From contig CAIFES010000004.1 of the NCBI GenBank assembly GCA_903789535.1, positions 6,255 to 70,254 on the forward strand: 64,000 nucleotides of DNA, written 5' to 3'. Of the stretch, positions 30,655 to 41,484 are shown one piece after another. Source of the stretch: an uncultured Aeriscardovia sp. Its GTDB lineage: Bacteria; Actinomycetota; Actinomycetes; Actinomycetales; Bifidobacteriaceae. Each line of letters opens with the position of its first letter. The stretch's first letter is position 1. The notes below the pieces were generated by a model, which worked only from the letters and a program-made list of their open reading frames with translations, was not told where the DNA came from and did no database searches. Position numbers and translations under genes: made by a program.

Positions 30655-30857
30655 CGTGACGCCTGGGAACCCGCCTTCCCCTGTCATCGGCTTGATGCAG
30701 TTCATCTGGATCACCGATGGTGGGGGATTTTTTTATATCGCGATTGATGGTTTCATCGCGAGAAATGTGTTCTCGCTTGCTGAGATCTTTGCTGTCGGAA
30801 TGATGAGTAGTTCTCGACAGTTAAATTCCGATTCTGATCACGGTCTGATCGAAATTC

Positions 30858-31955
30858 ATGAAGACTCCTTTTTGGGAGCAGCGACAGCTTGGGGACGTGG
30901 CACCGGTTGTGATGGGGCAGTCACCTGCCGGGAAAACATATTCGCATGAAGAATCCACGTACATTCTCGTTCAAGGCAACAACGACATTGTCAACGGTTT
31001 TGTCAAGCCGCGTACATGGACTACACAAAAGACTCGAGAGGTCCCAGCAGGAACCATTCTGTTCAGCGTAAGAGCACCTGTCGGCAGTCTCGCACAAACA
31101 CAATATGATGTGGTCCTTGGCCGGGGATTCGCAGGAATTAAGGGCGAAGCTTTCATTGCCTATTATCTTGAGCACCTTGGTGAGAGCGGTTACTGGCAGA
31201 GAATGAGTTCTGGATCAGTTCTGGATGCCATCACGGGGCCAGAACTGCGTACGACTCCAATTGCGCTACCATCCGAGCCAGAACGTCAGAGGCTCACCCA
31301 ATTCTTCGACACCCTCGGGTCACTCATCGCTGCCGCCGAGCGTAAATGCGACCTGCTCAAGCTCAAAAAACAGGCGTATCTCCAGCAGATGTTCCCGCAG
31401 AATGGTGAGGAACAGCCGCGTTTGAGGTTCAAAGGATTTACAGGAGATTGGGAACAGCGACAGCTCGGGGAATTGGCTGAAGTGGGAACTGGATCGCACA
31501 ACACACAAGATGGTAAGCAGGCCGGTTTATATCCTTTCTTCATTCGATCTGAGCAAAAACTATTCATGGATAGTTTCGACTTCGACGAAGAAGCTATTCT
31601 GGTTCCTGGCGACGGAAGAATCGGAGAAGTATTCCATTATCAGAATGGACCTTATGCTCTTCATCAACGGGTCTATCGTCTCCATGATTTCCACGGCATC
31701 TCGGCCCATTTTCTTCTGTACCTATTGGAATCTGGATTCAGAGCACATGCGCTCAAGGTCAATTCCCAAGGAACGGTACCGTCTTTGAGACATGCATCGT
31801 TTACCGATTGGCTTGTCCAGATCCCTTCTCCGCAAGAACAAGAAGCAATAGCCCTTCTCCTAGCACAGCTCGATTCCCTCATCTCAGCCGCCGAGCACAA
31901 GCTCGAAACCCTCAAACAGCTCAAGCAAGGCTACCTGCAGCAGATGTTTGTCTGA
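30858..31955 (+). CDS. hsdS: Type I R-M specificity subunit cassette (hsdS'), probably silent
   Basis: Two TRDs separated by the conserved FFDTLGSLIAAAERK...LKKQAYLQQMF region, with a C-terminal LKQLKQGYLQQMFV. There is no SD before the ATG and a TGA lies 4 codons upstream. It lacks the N-terminal ...QPRLRFKGFTD segment seen in the operon-linked hsdS. Confidence 0.85.
   Translation: MKTPFWEQRQLGDVAPVVMGQSPAGKTYSHEESTYILVQGNNDIVNGFVKPRTWTTQKTREVPAGTILFSVRAPVGSLAQTQYDVVLGRGFAGIKGEAFIAYYLEHLGESGYWQRMSSGSVLDAITGPELRTTPIALPSEPERQRLTQFFDTLGSLIAAAERKCDLLKLKKQAYLQQMFPQNGEEQPRLRFKGFTGDWEQRQLGELAEVGTGSHNTQDGKQAGLYPFFIRSEQKLFMDSFDFDEEAILVPGDGRIGEVFHYQNGPYALHQRVYRLHDFHGISAHFLLYLLESGFRAHALKVNSQGTVPSLRHASFTDWLVQIPSPQEQEAIALLLAQLDSLISAAEHKLETLKQLKQGYLQQMFV
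30872..30901 (+). repeat. IR1-left, 30 bp: TTGGGAGCAGCGACAGCTTGGGGACGTGGC
   Basis: Exact reverse complement of 34145..34174. It encodes WEQRQLGDV at the 5' end of both hsdS genes. Confidence 0.9.
31320..31342 (+). repeat. IR2-left, 23 bp: TCACTCATCGCTGCCGCCGAGCG
   Basis: Reverse complement of 33670..33692 with one mismatch. It encodes SLIAAAER in the central conserved region of both hsdS genes. Confidence 0.85.
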
Positions 31956-31956
31956 G
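31941..31956 (+). repeat. IR3-left, 16 bp: CAGATGTTTGTCTGAG
   Basis: Exact reverse complement of 33020..33035. It spans the last codons and stop of both hsdS genes, and is embedded in roughly 55 nt of about 85 percent identity by eye. Confidence 0.8.
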
Positions 31957-32025
31957 CAGTGTTCGTCCCTGCTGTGCCTACTGTCCTTTCTGCCACTGGC
32001 ACCATGCCGGCGGCGGGAAGGAATC

Positions 32026-32946
32026 ATGTATAAAAATCAGTTGCTGACGAACTATTACTCGGAATGGGTCGAGACGTATAAGCGTGGTGCAGTCTCGGAC
32101 GTCACCTTGCGCAAGTATTTGATGACGGCGAGGCGCCTGCGCGAGCTCGCGCCCGCCTTGACGCTGCACGATCTGTCACGGCTGGCATATCAGCGTCTGC
32201 TCAACACGTATGCCCTGACCCATGAGCGGCAGACCGTGCTGGACTTTCATCATCAGGTGAAGGCGGCGATCGAGGATGCGGTCGATGAGGGGATCATCCG
32301 TCACGACCCGACCCGTAAGGCCGTCATCAAAGGCACAACCCGGCGAGCGCACAAACCGAAGTACCTGAGCAAGTTCGAGCTGACGAAGCTGCTCGAGCAG
32401 ATGGTGCCGGACGATGATCATCCGTACGATTTCCTGTTGCTGCTGATTGCCAAGACCGGGCTGCGCTTTGCCGAGGCGCTGGGGCTCACACCGGCCGATA
32501 TCGATTTTCAGACGCAGCAGCTGAGCGTGACGAAGACGTGGAATTATAAAAGCATCACTGGCGGGTACGCTCCGACGAAGAACGAGTCGTCAAAACGCAA
32601 GGTACGGCTCGACTGGATGCTGTGTATGCAGCTCAAGCAGAAATGCCGTGGTCTCAGGTCTGATCAGCCTCTTTTCGTTGTCCCTGGAAAACGAATTTTC
32701 AACGCGACCGTCAACAAACGACTGGAGGAGCTGTGCCGTATGGCCGGCGTGCCCGTCATCTCTGTCCACGGCCTGCGGCATACGCACGCCTCGCTGCTTC
32801 TGTACGCAGGTGTGTCCGTCGCCTCCGTGGCGAAGAGACTCGGTCACGCCAACATGTCCACTACAGAAACGACATACCTGCATATCATCCGCGAGCTTGA
32901 GGCGAAGGACAACGACAAAGTGATGCAGTTCCTCAGCACGTTGTGA
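32026..32946 (+). CDS. Tyrosine site-specific recombinase (phage-integrase family), shufflon invertase candidate
   Basis: GLRFAEAL (Arg I), HGLRHTHAS (His-x-x-Arg) and TTYLHI (Tyr) catalytic signature. ATG 32026 follows GGAAGGA. The track start at 31948 is a TTG inside the hsdS' stop region. Confidence 0.9.
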   Translation: MYKNQLLTNYYSEWVETYKRGAVSDVTLRKYLMTARRLRELAPALTLHDLSRLAYQRLLNTYALTHERQTVLDFHHQVKAAIEDAVDEGIIRHDPTRKAVIKGTTRRAHKPKYLSKFELTKLLEQMVPDDDHPYDFLLLLIAKTGLRFAEALGLTPADIDFQTQQLSVTKTWNYKSITGGYAPTKNESSKRKVRLDWMLCMQLKQKCRGLRSDQPLFVVPGKRIFNATVNKRLEELCRMAGVPVISVHGLRHTHASLLLYAGVSVASVAKRLGHANMSTTETTYLHIIRELEAKDNDKVMQFLSTL

Positions 32947-32960
32947 GATGCTGCGACTAC

Positions 32961-33017
32961 CAGTAAGCCGTCCTATCGGGCGCATCCCTCGAGAAGCTCA
33001 GATAGGGCGGCTTACTG
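32961..33017. terminator. Long hairpin between the convergent recombinase and hsdS genes
   Basis: CAGTAAGCCGTCCTATC ... GATAGGGCGGCTTACTG form a 17-bp stem (one G.U pair) with a 23-nt loop and no clear U tract. Confidence 0.45.
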
Positions 33018-33019
33018 TT

Positions 33020-33035
33020 CTCAGACAAACATCTG
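33020..33035 (-). repeat. IR3-right
   Basis: CTCAGACAAACATCTG is the exact reverse complement of 31941..31956. Confidence 0.8.
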
Positions 33036-34244
33036 TTGGAGATAACCCTGCTTGAGCTGCTTGAGGGCCTCGAGCTTGCGTTCCGAGACTGAGATCTGAG
33101 AGTCAAGGGCATTAAAGAATGTGCCGATGGCCTGTTGCTCATCCTCAGACGGAATACGTATTTTCTGTTTGAACAGATCCTCCGGTACAAGTTCGTTCAT
33201 GATTGTTCCGCGCTTTGTCGAACGAATAAGTACAGGCCGCATGATCTGTTCATTGCGAAGAAGACATTTCCAGAACGAAAGAACAAGTGGTCTGCGTGGG
33301 CGTATCGCGCGAAAACGCGGAGACATGATTCCGACGCCGATATCGTTGAGAACAAGCTGACCGAACGGATGTGTCCGATGGCGATTCCCCTCGAAGGCAA
33401 TATCACCAGGGCGAAGAACCCTATATGTATTCAGAGAATCTGCAGCAGCAGACTTATCGCTGAATGACATTTTTGCTACTGAGATGAACTGTGATGCAGG
33501 GAATTGCCCATCGTTTCTCTCTTCATCCAGATCGAATAGATCACCAAGCTTCTGCTGCTCCCAGTCACCAGAAAAGCCCTTAAACCTCGTATGCGGCTGC
33601 AGTTCTCCTTTAGCCGTGAATAGACGTCGAAGATACGCAGCCTTCTCTAGGGCCAAAGTGCGAAGATGTCGCTCGGCGGCAGCTATGAGTGAATCGAGAA
33701 TTCGGAAGAATGTACCAATATTTTTCTGCTCTGTGATAGAAGGAATCGCGATAGGCATTTTCTCCATGGTTTTGGCAGAGACTTCGAGGAAAGTCGAACC
33801 CCCGGCCATTCTTTCTGCCCATGTCTTCGCTGTCAGACTCCGGCAATACATGAAGTAGATATCCATGTGGTCGTCGAGCACCCAAGATTGGAATCCCTGG
33901 TTGGTTGTAGCCGTCGTCAGCAAGATCGCCGTATCTCCGATTCCCGCACGCGAAGTAAACAGGATTGTTCTACCAGCCGGGAGTAGCGTTGCAGAACTAT
34001 GTTCCAACCCGCTTTGAGAAATCTTTCGACGGCTTTCTGACGCATATACAGATTGACCGATCTCATTAGGCGAAAACCAGTTGATATCGCCATTCCAATA
34101 ATCGGGGTTTGAGGTGTCGGGCGTTCCGCCTCCTACGATCTGAGCCACGTCCCCAAGCTGTCGCTGCTCCCAAGGGTCTGTGAACCCCTTGAACCGTAGT
34201 CTCGGCTGGAGTTCCTTCTTGGCTGATTTGCCTGTGTTTGTCAT
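33021..34244 (-). CDS. hsdS: Type I R-M specificity subunit (expressed copy, downstream of hsdM)
   Basis: MTNTGKSAKKELQPRLRFKGFTDPWEQRQLGDV..., central FFRILDSLIAAAERH, second PHTRFKGFSGDWEQQKLGDL and C-terminal LKQLKQGYLQQMFV. ATG 34244 follows GGGAGCAG and lies 35 nt after the hsdM stop. Confidence 0.9.
   Translation of the reverse strand: MTNTGKSAKKELQPRLRFKGFTDPWEQRQLGDVAQIVGGGTPDTSNPDYWNGDINWFSPNEIGQSVYASESRRKISQSGLEHSSATLLPAGRTILFTSRAGIGDTAILLTTATTNQGFQSWVLDDHMDIYFMYCRSLTAKTWAERMAGGSTFLEVSAKTMEKMPIAIPSITEQKNIGTFFRILDSLIAAAERHLRTLALEKAAYLRRLFTAKGELQPHTRFKGFSGDWEQQKLGDLFDLDEERNDGQFPASQFISVAKMSFSDKSAAADSLNTYRVLRPGDIAFEGNRHRTHPFGQLVLNDIGVGIMSPRFRAIRPRRPLVLSFWKCLLRNEQIMRPVLIRSTKRGTIMNELVPEDLFKQKIRIPSEDEQQAIGTFFNALDSQISVSERKLEALKQLKQGYLQQMFV
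33670..33692 (-). repeat. IR2-right
   Basis: CGCTCGGCGGCAGCTATGAGTGA is the reverse complement of IR2-left, apart from one base. Confidence 0.85.
34145..34174 (-). repeat. IR1-right
   Basis: GCCACGTCCCCAAGCTGTCGCTGCTCCCAA is the exact reverse complement of 30872..30901. Confidence 0.9.
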
Positions 34245-34278
34245 AATTGCCGCTGCTCCCAAACGAAAATAATCGCGA

Positions 34279-36039
34279 TTAATTTTTGGGCTGGTTATCT
34301 CGTGCATCATCCGTCTGGTTCGGATCGTCGGCTGCAGAATCGTCGCGATCTGCCGTTCCGTCGGACTGATTGTTTGTATCGTCCTCACCCACGCCGGTCG
34401 GCACAAGCTGGGCCGCCATCTGGTTGAATTTCGCCGTCAGATCCGCCATCTGCCTGTCGATATCGGCAAGCTCCTGATTGACCTTTCCCAGATCGATCGG
34501 CTTCTCCTCCTCGAACGTATCCACATACCGCGGGATGTTGAGGTTGTAGTCGTTTTCCTTGATCTCGTCGAGACTCGCCACATGCGCGAGCTTCCTGACA
34601 TCCTGCCGTTTCTCGTATGTAGAGAGGATCAGATCGATGTCCTCGGCGCGCAGATGGTTCTGGTTCTTGCCTTTCTCAAAATGCTTGGAGGCGTCGATGA
34701 AGAGGACGTCCGTATTCACCCTGTTCTTGCGGAACACGAGCACGACAGTGGGAATACCGGTGGAATAGAACAGATTGGCCGGCAGACCGATCACCGCGTC
34801 CAGATAATTCTTCTCGATGAGCGCCTTGCGGATGGCCCCTTCGGCGGCACCGCGGAACAGCACGCCGTGGGGAAGAACGATCGCCATGCGGCCGGTAGGC
34901 TTGAGATGGTAGACGCAGTGCTCCACGAAGGCGTAATCGGCCTTGGATTTCGGGGCGAGACGGCCGTAATCCTTGAAGCGCGGGTCCTTCATCTTCGACT
35001 CGTCGTTGTCCCACTTCTGCGAGTAGGGCGGGTTGGCCACCACCGCGTCGAAGAACAGCGGGTGGTCCACACCGTTGGCATCCATGCCGTCAGGCCAGTC
35101 GGACTCGAGGGTGTCGGCATTGCGCAAGTGCATGTTCGTGTACGGAACCCCGTGCATCATCAGGTTCATGCGCGCCAGGTTGTACGTGGTGCTGTTGAGC
35201 TCCTGGCCATAGAACGTCACGCGCTCGGGGTTGGCCGTGCCGCCTTTGACCTCCTGCTGCACCGTCAGCAGCAGCGAGCCGGAGCCGCACGTGGGGTCGT
35301 ACACCTCGAAGTTCTGGCTCTGGTCGGTGATCGCGGCGTTGTCCTGCGCCGGCACGGACGGATCGGCGTAGGTGACGAGCCGCGCGAGCACGTCCGAGAC
35401 CTCGTGCGGCGTGTAGAACTCACCGGCCTTCTTGCCCGAGTTGCTGGCGAACTGGGCGATGAGATACTCGTAGACGCTTCCCAGAACGTCACGGCCGCTG
35501 TCATCGGTGAAATTGATGCTGTTGACGTCCTCGAGCAGGTCGGAGAGCGCCTTGGCGCGCGAGGAGGTGGAGTTGCCCAGACTCGTGTTGCCGAGGTTGA
35601 TGTTGTCGAAGATGCTCTGGAAATCATGCAGTGACTGCTCGCTCAGCCCCGCGTTCTGGCGGAAGTGGTCGAACATGTTCTGGAAGTCCTCGGGACGGAT
35701 GGTCTTGGACTCGGCTTTGGCCACGAGCGTGGCCCACGTGTCCTCCGGGTCGATGGCGTAGCCGATTCCGCGCACGAGCGTCTCGCGCACGTCAGGCAGG
35801 TCCTCACTGCCCACCTGCTGGCGGTAGGCGGCGTTGAGGCTCTGGCCCTCAGCCGGGATCACGAGCGACTGGTCGGCGAGATACTGCTCCTGCTTCTGTG
35901 AGAGATAGCGATAGAAGATGAACCCAAGGATATAGTCGCGGTATTCGCTCGCATCCATCTTGCCGCGCAGGCTGTTTGCCATGTTCCACAGCTGTGCTGC
36001 AAGGTTCTGCGCCTGTTGTGTGCCCGTGTTTTCTGCCAT
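34279..36039 (-). CDS. hsdM: Type I R-M N6-adenine DNA methyltransferase subunit
   Basis: N-terminal HsdM domain (LWNMANSLRGKMDASEYRDYILGFIFYRYLS), SAM motif DPTCGSGSLL and catalytic VVANPPYS. Confidence 0.95.
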   Translation of the reverse strand: MAENTGTQQAQNLAAQLWNMANSLRGKMDASEYRDYILGFIFYRYLSQKQEQYLADQSLVIPAEGQSLNAAYRQQVGSEDLPDVRETLVRGIGYAIDPEDTWATLVAKAESKTIRPEDFQNMFDHFRQNAGLSEQSLHDFQSIFDNINLGNTSLGNSTSSRAKALSDLLEDVNSINFTDDSGRDVLGSVYEYLIAQFASNSGKKAGEFYTPHEVSDVLARLVTYADPSVPAQDNAAITDQSQNFEVYDPTCGSGSLLLTVQQEVKGGTANPERVTFYGQELNSTTYNLARMNLMMHGVPYTNMHLRNADTLESDWPDGMDANGVDHPLFFDAVVANPPYSQKWDNDESKMKDPRFKDYGRLAPKSKADYAFVEHCVYHLKPTGRMAIVLPHGVLFRGAAEGAIRKALIEKNYLDAVIGLPANLFYSTGIPTVVLVFRKNRVNTDVLFIDASKHFEKGKNQNHLRAEDIDLILSTYEKRQDVRKLAHVASLDEIKENDYNLNIPRYVDTFEEEKPIDLGKVNQELADIDRQMADLTAKFNQMAAQLVPTGVGEDDTNNQSDGTADRDDSAADDPNQTDDARDNQPKN

Positions 36040-36110
36040 TGTGATGTCCTTTTTCTGTTCGTGTCCGTCTGGTGCGTCCGTCTGCTGTGTCTGGTGCGTT
36101 TATCCACCGC

Positions 36111-39100
36111 TCACATGTCCGGCGCCTCGCGCACCACCTCGTCCGCCAGACGTCGCAGGGCCGCGGTCAGCGCGTTCCTGTAGCGGAACACACCCATCGC
36201 GCGGATGTTCTCGTCGGTGGCGTCGTTGCGGTAATAACCCTGTTTCGTCACCTCGGCGAGGAGGGTGTTCATATCCTCGCCGTTGATATCATCCGTTCCC
36301 GGCGTGTGGCGTGAGATGAGCGTATCGATGATCTGTTTGGACCCTTCGATATCGAGCAGGCCCCATTTCGTGCGGAAATCGAGAATCTGGGTGCGGGCGC
36401 GGTTTCGTGCGTTGTCGACGGCGATCTGCGTCACATCCTGCGGTCTGACCGGATAGGTGACGCCGGAGATCTTCCCGTCCGGAGCCGATTGCGCGGCGGC
36501 GGCGAGGTCTTTCAGGCGCTGTGCCTTGCCCTGATCGTCGAGCTGTGCGGCGGCCTGAGCGAAGTTCGCCAGACGTGCCTCCTGGTCATCGCTCTGCGTG
36601 CTGCGCGCGTTGAGATAGATGGCGAGCAGCTTTTCCAGATACGAGTAGTTGACGCGCTCCTCCCCCACATGCTCCACATGGAAATCGAGGTCGATCACCG
36701 GCTGTGGCGGGAACTCGGACGCAGAATCAGTCGTACCGGTCGGCAGTGTGATCGTATGTGGCAGCGCGACGAGTTTCTGTTCCTCGTCGTCACTGATTCC
36801 AAGCTTCTCGCGCAGCCCCTCGGGGTGTGCAGGATCAAAGATCGTCTCATCCTGCTTGAGGGCGGTGACTCCGTTGTTATAGATCTTCAGCTGTTGCAGG
36901 CACTCGCGCTTGTCCTCCATGGCCGGCGGATCCATCTGGGTGAAGTCGTCCGTGATCTTGCGCAGGACGTCGATGGCCCGGCGGGTATCATTGGTGATCT
37001 TGTCCATATCAGCAATGACTCCACCACCGTCAGGATGATCCGTCGTAGGATGCACGGCATTCGGGTCAGGTGCTTTTCCTGTCACCGCCGAATTGCGATC
37101 GGCATACACACGCAGCGCCTCGTTCATCAGCTGCTTGGACGTCTCGGGCCAGCGGAAGTTGACGATGCGGCCGAACGGTTTGTACTGGTTGTCGTCGATG
37201 CGGTTCGTGCGCGAGTATGCCTGAATGAGGCTCGCGCCCGAGAGCGTGCGGTCAACGTAGAGCGTGTTGAGCTTCGGGGCGTCGAAACCAGTGAGCAGCT
37301 GGTCGACCACGATCACCAGATCGAGTTTGCGCGCATTGTCCGCGCCGCTGCCCGGATCGACGCCCGCCAGGCGCGAGGTGACGTCAGCGAAATACTGCGG
37401 CACCGAGTCTTTGTTGAAATTTGTGCCGAACTCATGGTTGTAGTAGTCCATCGCCCGCACGAGATCGGCATTGTTGTCCTTCTCGTCATCGCCGTGATTG
37501 TTGGCGAACGAGAAAGTGACGGCGATCGTCAGCGGCGTGCCGCCATTCTTCTCGATCTGACGGTTCTGCCTGCGGAACTCATCAAAGTACTGCATCGCCA
37601 TCGGCGTGGAGGCACCGCTCTTCACATGCGTGGTCAGAAGCGCGGGATAGCGGCCGTCAACCGAGCGGTTGGACCAGTGGTCGAGAATGTTCTTCACCAC
37701 CGCCTCGACGTGCCTGGCATTGCCGTCGTAGACGCCCGAGTCGATGAGGTTGTCGACCTCCTCCGGCTCGATGCGGGCGATGTACATGTTGACCTGCTGT
37801 GTGCTCCAGCCCGGATGCTTCAACGCGATCAGCTGCGGCAGAAGCTTTTCCTTGACCTCGTCGGAATCAAGCGTGTGCTCGAAGTCAACTTTGAAGCCGA
37901 GCACATTCTTGTCGGCGATGCCCTGCTTGATGGTGTAGGCGTGCAGGCACCGGCCGAAGATGCGCGAGGTGGTGTCGTCGTCGAACAGTGGGGTTCCCGT
38001 GTAGCCCACCCAGGCGGAGAACGGGAACTTTTTGCGGATATCCTGCAGCATCGAGCCGTTGGTGGAGCGATGCGCCTCATCGCAGATGAACACGCAACGC
38101 TTGTCAAACTTTTTGAACGAGTCGCGCTTGCACAGATCCCCCATCTTCTGGATGGAGGTGACGATGATCGAGCTGCCGCTCTGCCGGCTGCGCAGACGCC
38201 GGGCAAGATCCGACACATTGCGCGTGTCGGAGACGACGCCGGACGAATCGACCGTCGAATCAGGATCGTAGGCGCGGTACTTGTCGTATGTCTGCCGCGT
38301 CAGCGCAATACGGTCCACAAGGAAGACCACCTTGTCGACCATCGGCAGCCGTGAGGCGAGCCATGCCGTCTTAAAGCTCGTGATGGTCTTGCCCGAGCCT
38401 GTCGTATGCCACACATAGCCAATGCCCTGTGCCTGGGCGGTATCGAAATCATGATTTTTGATGGCTCTGATCACACGGCGCGTGGCATACACCTGGTAGG
38501 GGCGCATGACGATGAGCCGGTCATGGCCGCGCTCGCCGTCAAGGATCATATAGCTCGTCGCCATCTGGTGCGCCATCGGGATGGAGAGCATCAGGTCGGT
38601 GAACGTCTTCCAGTCGTAGACCGGCTCGCCCTCGGGCGTCTGCCAGCGGAACGAGAAGTCGAGGCTGAAATGGTCCGCATCGGTCATCGCCATGTATTTG
38701 CAGTCGTAGGGCGTCATTCCCACAAGAATCTGCAGTGTGGAGAAAATACCGCCGTACTGGCCCTCCTGCGCATAGCGCTGCTCCTGGCGCAGCGCCTCGT
38801 TCACATCGTGCGCGGCGGATTTCTCCTCGATCTGGATGATCGGCAGACCGTTGATGAGCAGCGTCGTGTCGAAACGGCGTGAAGGAAGACCCGCCCGCAC
38901 CGGTTTGCGCTGTATCTGGTTGACGATCTGGTAGGTCGTGTTGCCCGCGCCCACCTGCTCCTGGTCGAACACGGTCAGCATCACCGTCTGGCCGGCGGGA
39001 TCCGTCGTCGTGTCCGTCGACTGCCGTTCGGAATCACCGTTTTGCGAGCCGTCGCCCGCCTGCGCCGCATCGCGATGGATCTCCACCTGCGTGACGCCGT

Positions 39101-39401
39101 TGAAACCGTACAGCCACTGTCCTGCCTTGTAGGGTGAGGAGCAGTTGGTGAGCAGCTCACGTCTGACCTGATTGAACTCATCGTTCGTCAGCGGTCTGCC
39201 GCCAAGCTTTCCGGTGTTGTTGCGCTCGAGAATATGGCGGAAGTTCGCCCACAGATCGTCCGTCGTCTTGATATCCGGCCTGTACTGCCATTGCTTCGTG
39301 CCGCCGATATGTTGCAGATGGCTGATGAGCTGACGTTCGAAGGCCTCCTCATCGCAAGGCACGGTCTGGTCCATTCCAGCGTTCTGCATCGAATCGCCCA
39401 T
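36111..39401 (-). CDS. hsdR: Type I R-M restriction endonuclease/translocase subunit
   Basis: HTTGSGKT (Walker A), ICDEAHRST (DEAH box), and YTGTP and QAYSRTNR helicase motifs. I prefer ATG 39401 after GAAAGG; the track ORF extends to 39479. Confidence 0.95.
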   Translation of the reverse strand: MGDSMQNAGMDQTVPCDEEAFERQLISHLQHIGGTKQWQYRPDIKTTDDLWANFRHILERNNTGKLGGRPLTNDEFNQVRRELLTNCSSPYKAGQWLYGFNGVTQVEIHRDAAQAGDGSQNGDSERQSTDTTTDPAGQTVMLTVFDQEQVGAGNTTYQIVNQIQRKPVRAGLPSRRFDTTLLINGLPIIQIEEKSAAHDVNEALRQEQRYAQEGQYGGIFSTLQILVGMTPYDCKYMAMTDADHFSLDFSFRWQTPEGEPVYDWKTFTDLMLSIPMAHQMATSYMILDGERGHDRLIVMRPYQVYATRRVIRAIKNHDFDTAQAQGIGYVWHTTGSGKTITSFKTAWLASRLPMVDKVVFLVDRIALTRQTYDKYRAYDPDSTVDSSGVVSDTRNVSDLARRLRSRQSGSSIIVTSIQKMGDLCKRDSFKKFDKRCVFICDEAHRSTNGSMLQDIRKKFPFSAWVGYTGTPLFDDDTTSRIFGRCLHAYTIKQGIADKNVLGFKVDFEHTLDSDEVKEKLLPQLIALKHPGWSTQQVNMYIARIEPEEVDNLIDSGVYDGNARHVEAVVKNILDHWSNRSVDGRYPALLTTHVKSGASTPMAMQYFDEFRRQNRQIEKNGGTPLTIAVTFSFANNHGDDEKDNNADLVRAMDYYNHEFGTNFNKDSVPQYFADVTSRLAGVDPGSGADNARKLDLVIVVDQLLTGFDAPKLNTLYVDRTLSGASLIQAYSRTNRIDDNQYKPFGRIVNFRWPETSKQLMNEALRVYADRNSAVTGKAPDPNAVHPTTDHPDGGGVIADMDKITNDTRRAIDVLRKITDDFTQMDPPAMEDKRECLQQLKIYNNGVTALKQDETIFDPAHPEGLREKLGISDDEEQKLVALPHTITLPTGTTDSASEFPPQPVIDLDFHVEHVGEERVNYSYLEKLLAIYLNARSTQSDDQEARLANFAQAAAQLDDQGKAQRLKDLAAAAQSAPDGKISGVTYPVRPQDVTQIAVDNARNRARTQILDFRTKWGLLDIEGSKQIIDTLISRHTPGTDDINGEDMNTLLAEVTKQGYYRNDATDENIRAMGVFRYRNALTAALRRLADEVVREAPDM

Positions 39402-39410
39402 CAGAAAAAC

Positions 39411-39512
39411 CTTTCGCAACAGCATTGTCGACGATGCCGGATTCATTTCATGACATTGTCGGCATTGTCGCTGTCCCATAGCGACAATTTCTTACTGTAC
39501 CTGTTGCGAAAG
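39411..39512 (-). promoter_or_regulatory. Nested inverted repeats in the hsdR leader; the proximal arm covers the hsdR SD
   Basis: Outer 12-nt perfect inverted repeat: CTTTCGCAACAG (39411..39422) with CTGTTGCGAAAG (39501..39512). Inner 8-nt inverted repeat: ATTGTCGC (39464..39471) with GCGACAAT (39481..39488). There are also extra ATTGTCG copies. Confidence 0.4.
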
Positions 39513-39522
39513 TCCTGATGAC

Positions 39523-39555
39523 ACAAAACGGCGCCCGGGTGCATCCCCGGACGCC
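39523..39555 (-). terminator. Intrinsic terminator of hisS-aspS
   Basis: The minus strand reads GGCGTCCGGG-gatgca-CCCGGGCGCC (10-bp stem, one G.U pair), followed by GTTTTGTGT. Confidence 0.65.
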
Positions 39556-39669
39556 GCTCATGCTGTCAGTCCAGTCTCAGTTTGGAAGACTGATCACGCC
39601 TCGCTCGCAGGCTTTGGACTGCGGACTAAGCATGATTGTCTTTGGCGCGATTCTTCGGCGCGATCGGAC

Positions 39670-41484
39670 TTATTTCTCGGCAGAATCCTGAGCCTGCTCG
39701 TCCTCCGGCTTCTCGTCCACGCCGGTCTCCGCGCGCTGGGCGGCGGAAATGGGCGCCGGGGCACCGGTGAGCAGGTCGGTGCCGGCGTGCGTCTTCGGGA
39801 AGGCGATCACGTCGCGGATGGAGTCCGTGCCCGCCATGATGGCCGAGGCGCGGTCCCAGCCGAAGGCCATGCCGGCGTGCGGCGGGGCTCCGTACTGGAA
39901 GGCGTCGAGCAGGAAGCCGAACTTTTCCTGTGCCTCCTGCTGGCCGATGCCAAGCACATTGAGCACGCGGTTCTGGATGTCGGTGCGGTGGATACGCTCC
40001 GAGCCACCGCCCATCTCCAGGCCGTTGCACACGATGTCGTAGGCGTTGCTCATGGCGTGCTCGGGATCCTTGTCGAAGGTGTCGATCCAGTCCTCGCGCG
40101 GCATGGTGAACGGGTGGTGCATCGGGCTCCACGCGGAGTGGCCCACCTGCACATGGTCGTCGTTCGGGTCGTCGGTGCGCTTGAACAGCGGGAAGTCGAC
40201 CACCCACACGAAGGCAAACTTCTTGGGGTCGAGCAGACCCTGGCGACGGGCGATCTCACGGCGGACCATGCCCAGCAGCAGCTGGCTGGACTCCCGGTCG
40301 CCGGCGGAGAAGAACACGGCGTCGCCGTCATGGGCGCCCACCTTGGCGGCAAGACCCTCGCGCTCGGCGTCGGAGAGGTGCTTTGCCACCGGGCCGGAGA
40401 TTTCCCCGTCCTTGAACACGGCGTAGGCAAGGCCCTTCGCGCCGCGCTGCTTCGCCCAGTCCTGCCACTCGTCGAACTGACGGCGGTGCAGCGCCGCGCC
40501 GCCGCTGTAGAGCACGGCGCCCACATAGTCCTGCTGGAACAGGCGGAACGGGGTGTTCTTGAAGTAGTCGGTCATCTCCACAAGCTGGTTGCCGAAGCGC
40601 AGGTCCGGCTTGTCGGAGCCGTACTTGTCCATCGCATCCTTCCAGCTGATACGCGCGATCGGAGTCTTCACCTCATAACCGCAGGCCTTCCAAACATCGT
40701 GGATGATCTGCTCGCCGACCTTCATCACGTCCTCCTGGCCCACGTAGCTCATCTCGAGATCGAGCTGAGTGAACTCCGGCTGGCGGTCAGCGCGGAAATC
40801 CTCGTCACGGAAGCAGCGGGCGAACTGGTAGTAGCGCTCCACGCCCGAGACCATGAGCAGCTGCTTGAGCAGCTGGGGCGACTGCGGCAGCGCGTACCAC
40901 GAGCCCGGATGCAGGCGGGAGGGGACCACGAAATCGCGCGCGCCCTCGGGGGTGGACTTGATCAGATCGGGGGTCTCGACCTCCTCGAAGTCCATCTTGT
41001 GCAGGCTCTCGCGCGCGGCCCACATCATCTTGGCGCGCAGCGACAGGCGCTTCTGCATGGCCGGGCGGCGCAGGTCGAGGAAGCGGTACTTGAGGCGCAC
41101 GTCCTCGCCGGGCAGGTTGTTCTCCCCCTTGTTCTCCACGATCGAGGAGACCTGGAACGGCAGCTGTTTCGAGGTGGCGAGCACGGTGACCTTCGTGGCG
41201 TCGAGCTCCACGTCGCCGGTGACCATGTTGTCGCTCTTCTGGCTGTCCGGCCTCTCGGCGACGGTGCCGGTGATCTGCACCACGTATTCGGCGCGGATGT
41301 CGCCCACCAGCTTCGGGTCGTCGACCATCACCTGCAGCAGGCCGGAATGGTCGCGCAGATCAAGGAAGGTCATGCCTCCCAGATCACGGCGGCGGTCGAC
41401 CCAGCCGGCGACCGTCACGCTCTGGCCGACGAGCCCCAGGCCGATCTCGGCGATGGAGTGCGTTCTGTATTTGCTCGAGCTCAT
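39670..41484 (-). CDS. aspS: Aspartate--tRNA ligase
   Basis: N-terminal OB fold, class II motif 2 FRDEDFRADRQPEFTQLD, and motif 3 GGSERIHR...PPHAGMAFGWDR. Confidence 0.95.
   Translation of the reverse strand: MSSSKYRTHSIAEIGLGLVGQSVTVAGWVDRRRDLGGMTFLDLRDHSGLLQVMVDDPKLVGDIRAEYVVQITGTVAERPDSQKSDNMVTGDVELDATKVTVLATSKQLPFQVSSIVENKGENNLPGEDVRLKYRFLDLRRPAMQKRLSLRAKMMWAARESLHKMDFEEVETPDLIKSTPEGARDFVVPSRLHPGSWYALPQSPQLLKQLLMVSGVERYYQFARCFRDEDFRADRQPEFTQLDLEMSYVGQEDVMKVGEQIIHDVWKACGYEVKTPIARISWKDAMDKYGSDKPDLRFGNQLVEMTDYFKNTPFRLFQQDYVGAVLYSGGAALHRRQFDEWQDWAKQRGAKGLAYAVFKDGEISGPVAKHLSDAEREGLAAKVGAHDGDAVFFSAGDRESSQLLLGMVRREIARRQGLLDPKKFAFVWVVDFPLFKRTDDPNDDHVQVGHSAWSPMHHPFTMPREDWIDTFDKDPEHAMSNAYDIVCNGLEMGGGSERIHRTDIQNRVLNVLGIGQQEAQEKFGFLLDAFQYGAPPHAGMAFGWDRASAIMAGTDSIRDVIAFPKTHAGTDLLTGAPAPISAAQRAETGVDEKPEDEQAQDSAEK

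Follow-up and report, generated by a model that had tools for sequence, protein, structure and literature searches.

A 64,000-nucleotide (nt) stretch of contig CAIFES010000004.1 from an uncultured Aeriscardovia sp. (NCBI GenBank assembly GCA_903789535.1; the whole stretch is referred to here as the window) contains a complete Type I restriction-modification (R-M) locus at 30.7–39.7 kb. The genes are arranged in the order hsdR-hsdM-hsdS-recombinase-hsdS′, all five have Pfam matches, and the two specificity genes, hsdS and hsdS′, converge on the gene for a tyrosine recombinase that lies between them (Table 1). Each specificity gene encodes two target recognition domains (TRDs), termed TRD1 and TRD2 in HsdS and TRD1′ and TRD2′ in HsdS′. 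No DNA similarity was found among the four TRDs, which agrees with an earlier sequence-only reading of the locus in which the TRDs of the two genes had been described as unrelated. HsdS, encoded directly behind hsdM, carries a 24-residue N-terminal leader (MTNTGKSAKKELQPRLRFKGFTDP) that is missing from HsdS′, which starts with MKTPFWEQRQLG. Simple consensus scans found no promoter-like site upstream of hsdS′, and the terminator-like hairpin that follows the 2-hydroxyacid dehydrogenase gene would shield hsdS′ from read-through. In keeping with both observations, hsdS′ is probably silent.

Table 1. Genes, inverted repeats and hairpins of the hsd locus (positions in the window; aa, amino acids; RBS, ribosome-binding site).
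Feature	Position	Strand	Description
hsdR	36111-39479	-	Restriction/translocase subunit; open frame of 1122 aa, 1104 aa from the start chosen by gene callers
hsdM	34279-36039	-	Methyltransferase subunit; Pfam N6_Mtase and HsdM_N
hsdS	33021-34244	-	407 aa; TRD1 and TRD2; two Pfam Methylase_S stretches; predicted expressed specificity gene, 34 nt downstream of hsdM
Tyrosine recombinase gene	32026-32946	+	306 aa; Pfam Phage_integrase; homologue of EfiA-type invertases
hsdS′	30858-31955	+	365 aa; TRD1′ and TRD2′; two Pfam Methylase_S stretches; second, probably silent, specificity gene
IR1 left arm	30872-30901	+	Exact 30-mer TTGGGAGCAGCGACAGCTTGGGGACGTGGC, encoding WEQRQLGDV(A)
IR1 right arm	34144-34173	-	Exact 30-mer, corrected coordinates
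IR2 left arm	31320-31342	+	23 nt, encoding SLIAAAER in the central conserved region
IR2 right arm	33670-33692	-	22/23 match to left arm
IR3 left arm	31941-31956	+	Exact 16-mer: last four codons (QMFV), stop and 1 further nt
IR3 right arm	33020-33035	-	Exact 16-mer
IR1-like copy before TRD2′	31448-31477	+	Degenerate; 26/30 to IR1; WEQRQLGEL; 2 mismatches in 20 at 31449-31468
IR1-like copy before TRD2 of hsdS	33544-33563	-	Degenerate; 3 mismatches in 20; WEQQKLG
Fifth, partial IR1-core copy	34248-34263	-	TTTGGGAGCAGCG, 13 nt exact; in the 34-nt hsdM-hsdS spacer
Terminator-like hairpin and T-run	30711-30733	+	After the 2-hydroxyacid dehydrogenase gene, just outside the left border of the R-M island; sequence kept in an island-free relative (L064)
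Hairpin between hsdS′ stop and recombinase start	31984-32022	+	-32.9 kcal/mol, z -3.3; pairs with the recombinase RBS GGGAAGG
Strong hairpin	32961-33017		17-bp stem between the convergent stops of recombinase gene and hsdS; -40.9 kcal/mol, z -6.1 on the + strand

Three pairs of inverted repeats, IR1, IR2 and IR3, lie in the N-terminal, central and C-terminal conserved segments, respectively, of both hsdS genes. All three had been noticed in the sequence-only reading. IR1 is indeed a perfect 30-mer, although its right arm had been placed one base off, at 34145-34174, a register in which the arms mismatch; IR2 as a 23-mer with one mismatch and IR3 as a perfect 16-mer over the last codons and the stop were both confirmed at the positions originally given. 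The sole mismatch in IR2 (ATCGCTGCCGCCGAGCG) is synonymous (ATC/ATA, Ile) and the longest exact core of this repeat is 14 nt. Similarity extends further, to 42 nt at 81% for IR2 and to 88 nt at 80% for IR3. In 60 trials in which the codons of hsdS′ were shuffled, the longest shared substring was 9-15 nt, a range that IR1 exceeds by far, that IR3 only borders on, and within which the exact core of IR2 falls. Amino acids shared by HsdS and HsdS′ are encoded by the same codon in 34 of 104 cases outside the repeats (33%) versus 17 of 19 inside. Since IR1 comprises eight consecutive identical degenerate codons against this background of 33%, it is a feature of the DNA and not of protein conservation alone. 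The possibility, raised with the repeats themselves, that they are merely conserved coding sequence thus fails for IR1, but it may hold for IR3. The latter lies within a run of 14 identical residues (LKQLKQGYLQQMFV) in which synonymous differences are common up to the last four codons, and its three identical degenerate codons could be explained by protein conservation. IR3 is most likely the conserved 3′ end of both genes rather than a working site, while IR2 appears convincing mainly through its homologous location, as set out below.

The recombinase has intact catalytic residues: R147, H248, R251, H274 and Y284 are invariant in 8 homologues and the H-x-x-R pattern is kept. Homologues with 58-78% identity occur across Bifidobacteriaceae, Lactobacillaceae and Enterococcus. 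Over 302 residues (5-306), the protein is 57% identical to one from Enterococcus faecalis that is encoded, within the same gene order, in contigs with both repeats published for the Efa4125I/EfaH25I system. By pairwise identity to this homologue and by gene order, the recombinase groups with EfiA, the clade 4 invertase; NCBIfam gave weak Xer-like matches, all of them under the cut-off. More distant homologues (∼52% identity) are present on plasmids of Ligilactobacillus salivarius. In two of these (L033, NZ_CP114511; L034, NZ_CP114518) the gene lies by the replication initiator gene repA with no R-M genes, and in four others (L029-L032) it is found in a decayed locus beside a single, half-size hsdS. 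The recombinase family is therefore not confined to intact invertons. These six plasmids, which are from badgers, were also considered as clonal snapshots of inversion but were uninformative, four having decayed loci and two having no R-M genes.

We propose that the locus is a four-allele inverton. The hsdR-hsdM-hsdS operon would be expressed and the oppositely oriented hsdS′ would be promoterless, while the embedded recombinase would catalyse conservative site-specific exchange between short stretches that are identical in the conserved regions of hsdS and hsdS′. Exchange at IR1, just before TRD1, would invert 3.2 kb and place TRD1′ and TRD2′ behind the hsdS start, whereas exchange at IR2, in the central conserved region, would invert 2.3 kb and swap the second TRDs alone. 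The two combined would give four in-frame HsdS proteins (TRD1/2, TRD1′/2′, TRD1/2′ and TRD1′/2), and hence four methylation and restriction specificities within one clone. Every single inversion would also turn the recombinase gene, which is convergent with the operon in the window and would otherwise be co-directional; one inversion would place it 70 nt behind the expressed hsdS, with the hairpin at 31984-32022 between them. When the inversions were carried out in silico, the three alternative expressed alleles (B, C and D), the silent partner of each and one cross-site product were all open and in frame, and both reading frames are kept, with all 8 in-silico alleles open. The recombinants fit the geometry foreseen in the sequence-only reading, in which IR1 would swap both TRDs and IR2 only TRD2, and together with crossovers in relatives they lend support to its prediction of four TRD combinations. 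We regard a four-allele inverton with crossovers at IR1 and IR2 made by the embedded recombinase as the probable explanation of the locus and hold it with good confidence.

In three related systems with homologous recombinases, inversion crossovers are found at positions homologous to IR1 and IR2. One is that of a sister species (aspartyl-tRNA synthetase, AspRS, 92% identical), in which the locus lies in the same aspS/2-hydroxyacid dehydrogenase neighbourhood and the recombinase is 78% identical to the one described here. Sister-species contigs from different samples encode recombinases that are 100% identical, yet their central 2.3 kb runs one way or the other with respect to hsdM. When the contigs were compared base by base, the crossover was confined to a 26-nt exact repeat (TGATCGCTGCCGCGCAGCGACAAAAG, encoding IAAAQRQK) that aligns with IR2. 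The second system is found on two megaplasmids of Enterococcus raffinosus (L035 and L036), with the same gene order and a recombinase of 58% identity. The megaplasmids are collinear apart from their two TRD1s, which have traded places. The breakpoints lie in ACGATTGGGAAC (the WEQ site, encoding WEQRKL, homologous to IR1) and CCTTCATCAGCGTAAACTTGACTTATTAAA (the central site, encoding LHQRKLDLL, homologous to IR2), and the exchange is the product of two inversions. Loci of the third system, that of E. faecalis, were retrieved with the repeat published for Efa4125I/EfaH25I, and two contigs (L058 and L063) match at 100% apart from one inverted segment, at whose ends lies the published 15-nt repeat TGGGAACAGTGTAAG, the homologue of IR1. 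The crossovers in these relatives fall in exact cores of 12-29 nt. Inspection of the cores by eye, which provides a lead only, revealed CAG-C/T-G followed by TAA or ACA in all three systems and also in IR1, while IR2 ends in the related GAGCG and IR3 has neither. A core motif kept across low- and high-G+C taxa (TGGGAGCAG) was dropped as evidence because the codons for W-E-Q explain it.

The same architecture, with a recombinase gene between inverted hsdS genes and exact inverted repeats at the same conserved positions, is present in 16 further loci from Bifidobacteriaceae and Lactobacillaceae. Loci of Pseudoscardovia radai, P. suis and Bifidobacterium apri (L005, L006 and L007) have four hsdS copies, and exact repeats of 20-58 nt are numerous at their WEQRQL and central sites, which would raise the number of possible alleles well above four. 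The conserved block that surrounds the recombinase gene in Lactobacillaceae takes in ∼110 bp of each hsdS 3′ end, and exact repeats of 15-30 nt span the stop codons. IR3-type repeats therefore recur, although they may do no more than mark the edge of the conserved block.

The sequence-only reading had also pointed to two degenerate copies of the IR1 core, one before each TRD2, through which additional rearrangements might occur. Both copies exist, and zero such matches are expected by chance within the window. The one at 31449-31468 has the 2 mismatches in 20 nt attributed to it, while the other has 3 in 20 rather than 2 and lies slightly away from the position first assigned. The TRD family at position 2 of this hsdS (33021-33560) occupies position 1 in the sister species and in Bifidobacterium criceti, at 56% and 52% identity, respectively (copies in relatives at L037, 6567-7139, and L003, 7495-8040). 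Similarly, one Ligilactobacillus TRD is at position 2 in one genome and at position 1 in another. The WEQ-type sites before both TRDs have therefore been used in evolution, and the additional rearrangements can be upheld on that scale only. The fifth, partial copy of the IR1 core in the hsdM-hsdS spacer overlaps the likely RBS of hsdS, and translated in a different frame it gives WEQRQL and then a stop overlapping the hsdS ATG. Neither the sister species nor strain L026 has this copy, which may be the scar of an earlier rearrangement or an OFF-switch site.

More than four states would be possible if IR3 flipped the recombinase gene alone, so that its orientation, and with it read-through expression, no longer depended on the hsdS allele, and if the spacer copy recombined with the left arm of IR1, which would remove the hsdS start (OFF). 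Such a self-regulating switch would have at least eight configurations. To our knowledge, a switch of this kind has not been described for EfiA-type systems. No flip at IR3 alone was seen in relative pairs that share the recombinase block and the adjacent TRD2, and the proposal that IR3 would turn only the recombinase gene found no support in any comparison among relatives. We consider the extended switch a long shot.

Several points weigh against the four-allele inverton. The 14 exact bases of IR2 are short for a crossover site, and the silence of hsdS′ depends on simple consensus scans, which are weak evidence. Every record of the TRDs of this strain has the present arrangement. An exact look-up of the 7 predicted recombinant proteins among ∼15 billion proteins returned none, with both reference proteins present, and an HsdS homology search found no protein sharing either TRD above 62% identity. 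The missing alternative arrangement says little because the strain is represented by only about 3 assemblies, namely one NCBI assembly and two Logan runs. In Logan run ERR4183111, one contig spans exactly the stretch from IR1 arm to IR1 arm (3302 bp, 30872-34173) and the contig with hsdM breaks off where IR1 ends on its inner side (L002 and L025), unlike the sister run ERR4183112, which assembles straight through. These contig breaks were rejected as evidence of inversion, since at k=31 any 30-nt repeat creates a branch in the assembly graph, whether or not inversion takes place. A further contig (L026; ENA ERZ24911188, 5646-6800) comes from a strain whose hsdR-hsdM region is 98% identical and which has a Mrr_cat nuclease gene inserted after hsdM, ahead of an hsdS with a different leader. 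Of IR1, at least the first 24 nt are retained, and this metaSPAdes contig ends inside the repeat. The end is suggestive of a branch point at IR1 but was not used because coverage is only ∼10x.

The single arrangement on record would be expected if the locus were static, with repeats that are conserved coding sequence of paralogous hsdS genes, no meaningful inversion, and hsdS′ as a dead reservoir or a separately expressed gene. IR3 and the exact core of IR2 also fit a static locus, being no longer than conserved coding or chance would give. However, the eight consecutive identical codons of IR1 do not, and the recombinase is intact and homologous sites recombine in the three related systems, so we judge a static locus to be unlikely. 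Were inversion to proceed instead by general, RecA-type homologous recombination, the neighbouring recombinase would be dispensable or would have another role. Exact identity over just 30, 14 and 16 nt is short for RecA-dependent exchange. Moreover, crossovers in relatives occurred within the 12-29 nt exact cores, and the recombinase gene is syntenic with inverted hsdS pairs across two phyla. On the other side, the extended repeats reach 42-88 nt at ∼80%, and spnIII rearrangement in Streptococcus pneumoniae is reported to persist without all known site-specific recombinases (PMC6620402). Taken together, we find general recombination quite improbable as the route of inversion at this locus and favour the embedded recombinase.

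It is also conceivable that the recombinase is the integrase of the island on which the R-M locus resides and serves in integration or excision rather than in hsdS inversion. In the closest relative (GCA_040769945.1; AspRS 95% identical), the entire island of ∼8.9 kb (∼30734-39676, with borders taken from the empty site in L064) is missing and the 2-hydroxyacid dehydrogenase gene comes next after aspS. In addition, homologues of ∼52% identity lie outside any R-M locus on L. salivarius plasmids. In contrast to a mobile-element integrase, which would be located at an edge, the recombinase gene is internal to the island, between the hsdS genes, and it is found in this position in many chromosomal and plasmid settings unrelated to each other. 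Judged by gene position, an integrase function in place of hsdS inversion seems extremely unlikely, and the four-allele inverton remains our preferred explanation.

The locus contains hsdR, hsdM and at least two hsdS genes, has its hsdS genes in opposite orientation with inverted repeats in their coding sequences, encodes a recombinase with intact catalytic residues, and keeps its reading frames upon inversion; at the level of sequence it therefore has every feature of the invertase-positive epigenetic inverton as defined by Huang et al. (2020). These authors used PCR, sequencing and single-molecule real-time (SMRT) methylomes to demonstrate four configurations of the E. faecalis inverton, in which each hsdSA allele has its own motif and two repeat pairs, one at the WEQ site and the other in the central region, account for the four alleles (PMC7672463). 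The E. faecalis Efa4125I/EfaH25I system (EfiA, clade 4) has the order hsdR, hsdM, hsdSA, recombinase, hsdSB, and its last three genes have sizes of 1218, 930 and 1077 bp, compared with 1224 (hsdS), 921 (recombinase) and 1098 bp (hsdS′) here. In both systems, the WEQ-x-K/Q-L site that precedes TRD1 holds one repeat and the central conserved region another. They differ in that the host here is a high-G+C actinobacterium, that the repeat sequences are different and their lengths reversed (15 nt and 30-60 nt in E. faecalis, 30 nt and 23 nt here), and that the present locus has two additional elements, the perfect 16-mer over the stop codons and the fifth, partial IR1-core copy between hsdM and hsdS. 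The E. faecalis system is known from PCR and methylome data, the present locus from its sequence.

An embedded tyrosine recombinase and nested inverted repeats in the hsdS genes likewise shuffle TRDs and generate several methylation specificities in the SpnD39III (ivr/cod; CreX/PsrA) system of S. pneumoniae (PMC4190663, PMC4948785). SpnD39III, in clade 1, has three hsdS genes and six alleles, whereas the present locus has two hsdS genes, and according to Huang et al. there is no significant similarity between invertase clades (PMC7672463). By its hsdS count and the published clade description, the locus does not belong to the SpnD39III clade. Within the same family, Bifidobacterium longum strains NCIMB 8809, CCUG 30698 and F8 have a Type I system in which a recombinase gene is surrounded by two or three hsdS genes; that these hsdS genes recombine with one another has been suggested, not demonstrated (PMC4618763). 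Unlike the recombinase described here, which groups with EfiA in clade 4, that of B. longum F8 was assigned to invertase clade 2 by Huang et al. (PMC7672463). The hsdS genes in the hsd loci of Mycoplasma pulmonis, as cited in the same paper, are also inverted by a tyrosine recombinase (HvsR) at short sites in conserved hsdS sequence; the gene for HvsR, however, lies at another place in the genome, and unrelated surface-protein loci are among the targets of the enzyme.

Hairpins flank the recombinase gene on both sides. The one at 31984-32022 may provide translational or termination control of the recombinase, and perfect palindromes of 20-25 nt occupy the same spot in three relatives (L003, 5951-6005; L004, 5953-6003; L009, 529-575). 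The hairpin at 32961-33017 is probably a bidirectional terminator. From their positions we infer that the two hairpins probably restrain recombinase expression.

The G+C content is 50% in the hsdS genes and 57-60% in the rest of the island compared with 63% for the window. In the sister species, extra Abi_2 and other genes are present at the same spot, which suggests that the insertion site between aspS and the dehydrogenase gene is a hotspot for defence genes. The AspRS of the host has no match above 73% identity among proteins on record from outside its own lineage, and none above ∼71% among named species.

The locus adds a new bifidobacterial example to this class of invertons. Its architecture, site positions and four-allele outcome are already documented in the homologous E. 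faecalis system, and actinobacterial members have been counted in surveys, with 9 loci in clade 4 according to Huang et al. (PMC7672463), so that the conceptual gain is small. If the inverton is active, however, one clone would present four restriction specificities and four methylomes, with consequences for its resistance to phages, for how it takes up foreign DNA and possibly for gene expression. Genome assemblies and methylome calls that cover the locus may then mix several states, and the transformation of such strains may meet a moving restriction barrier.

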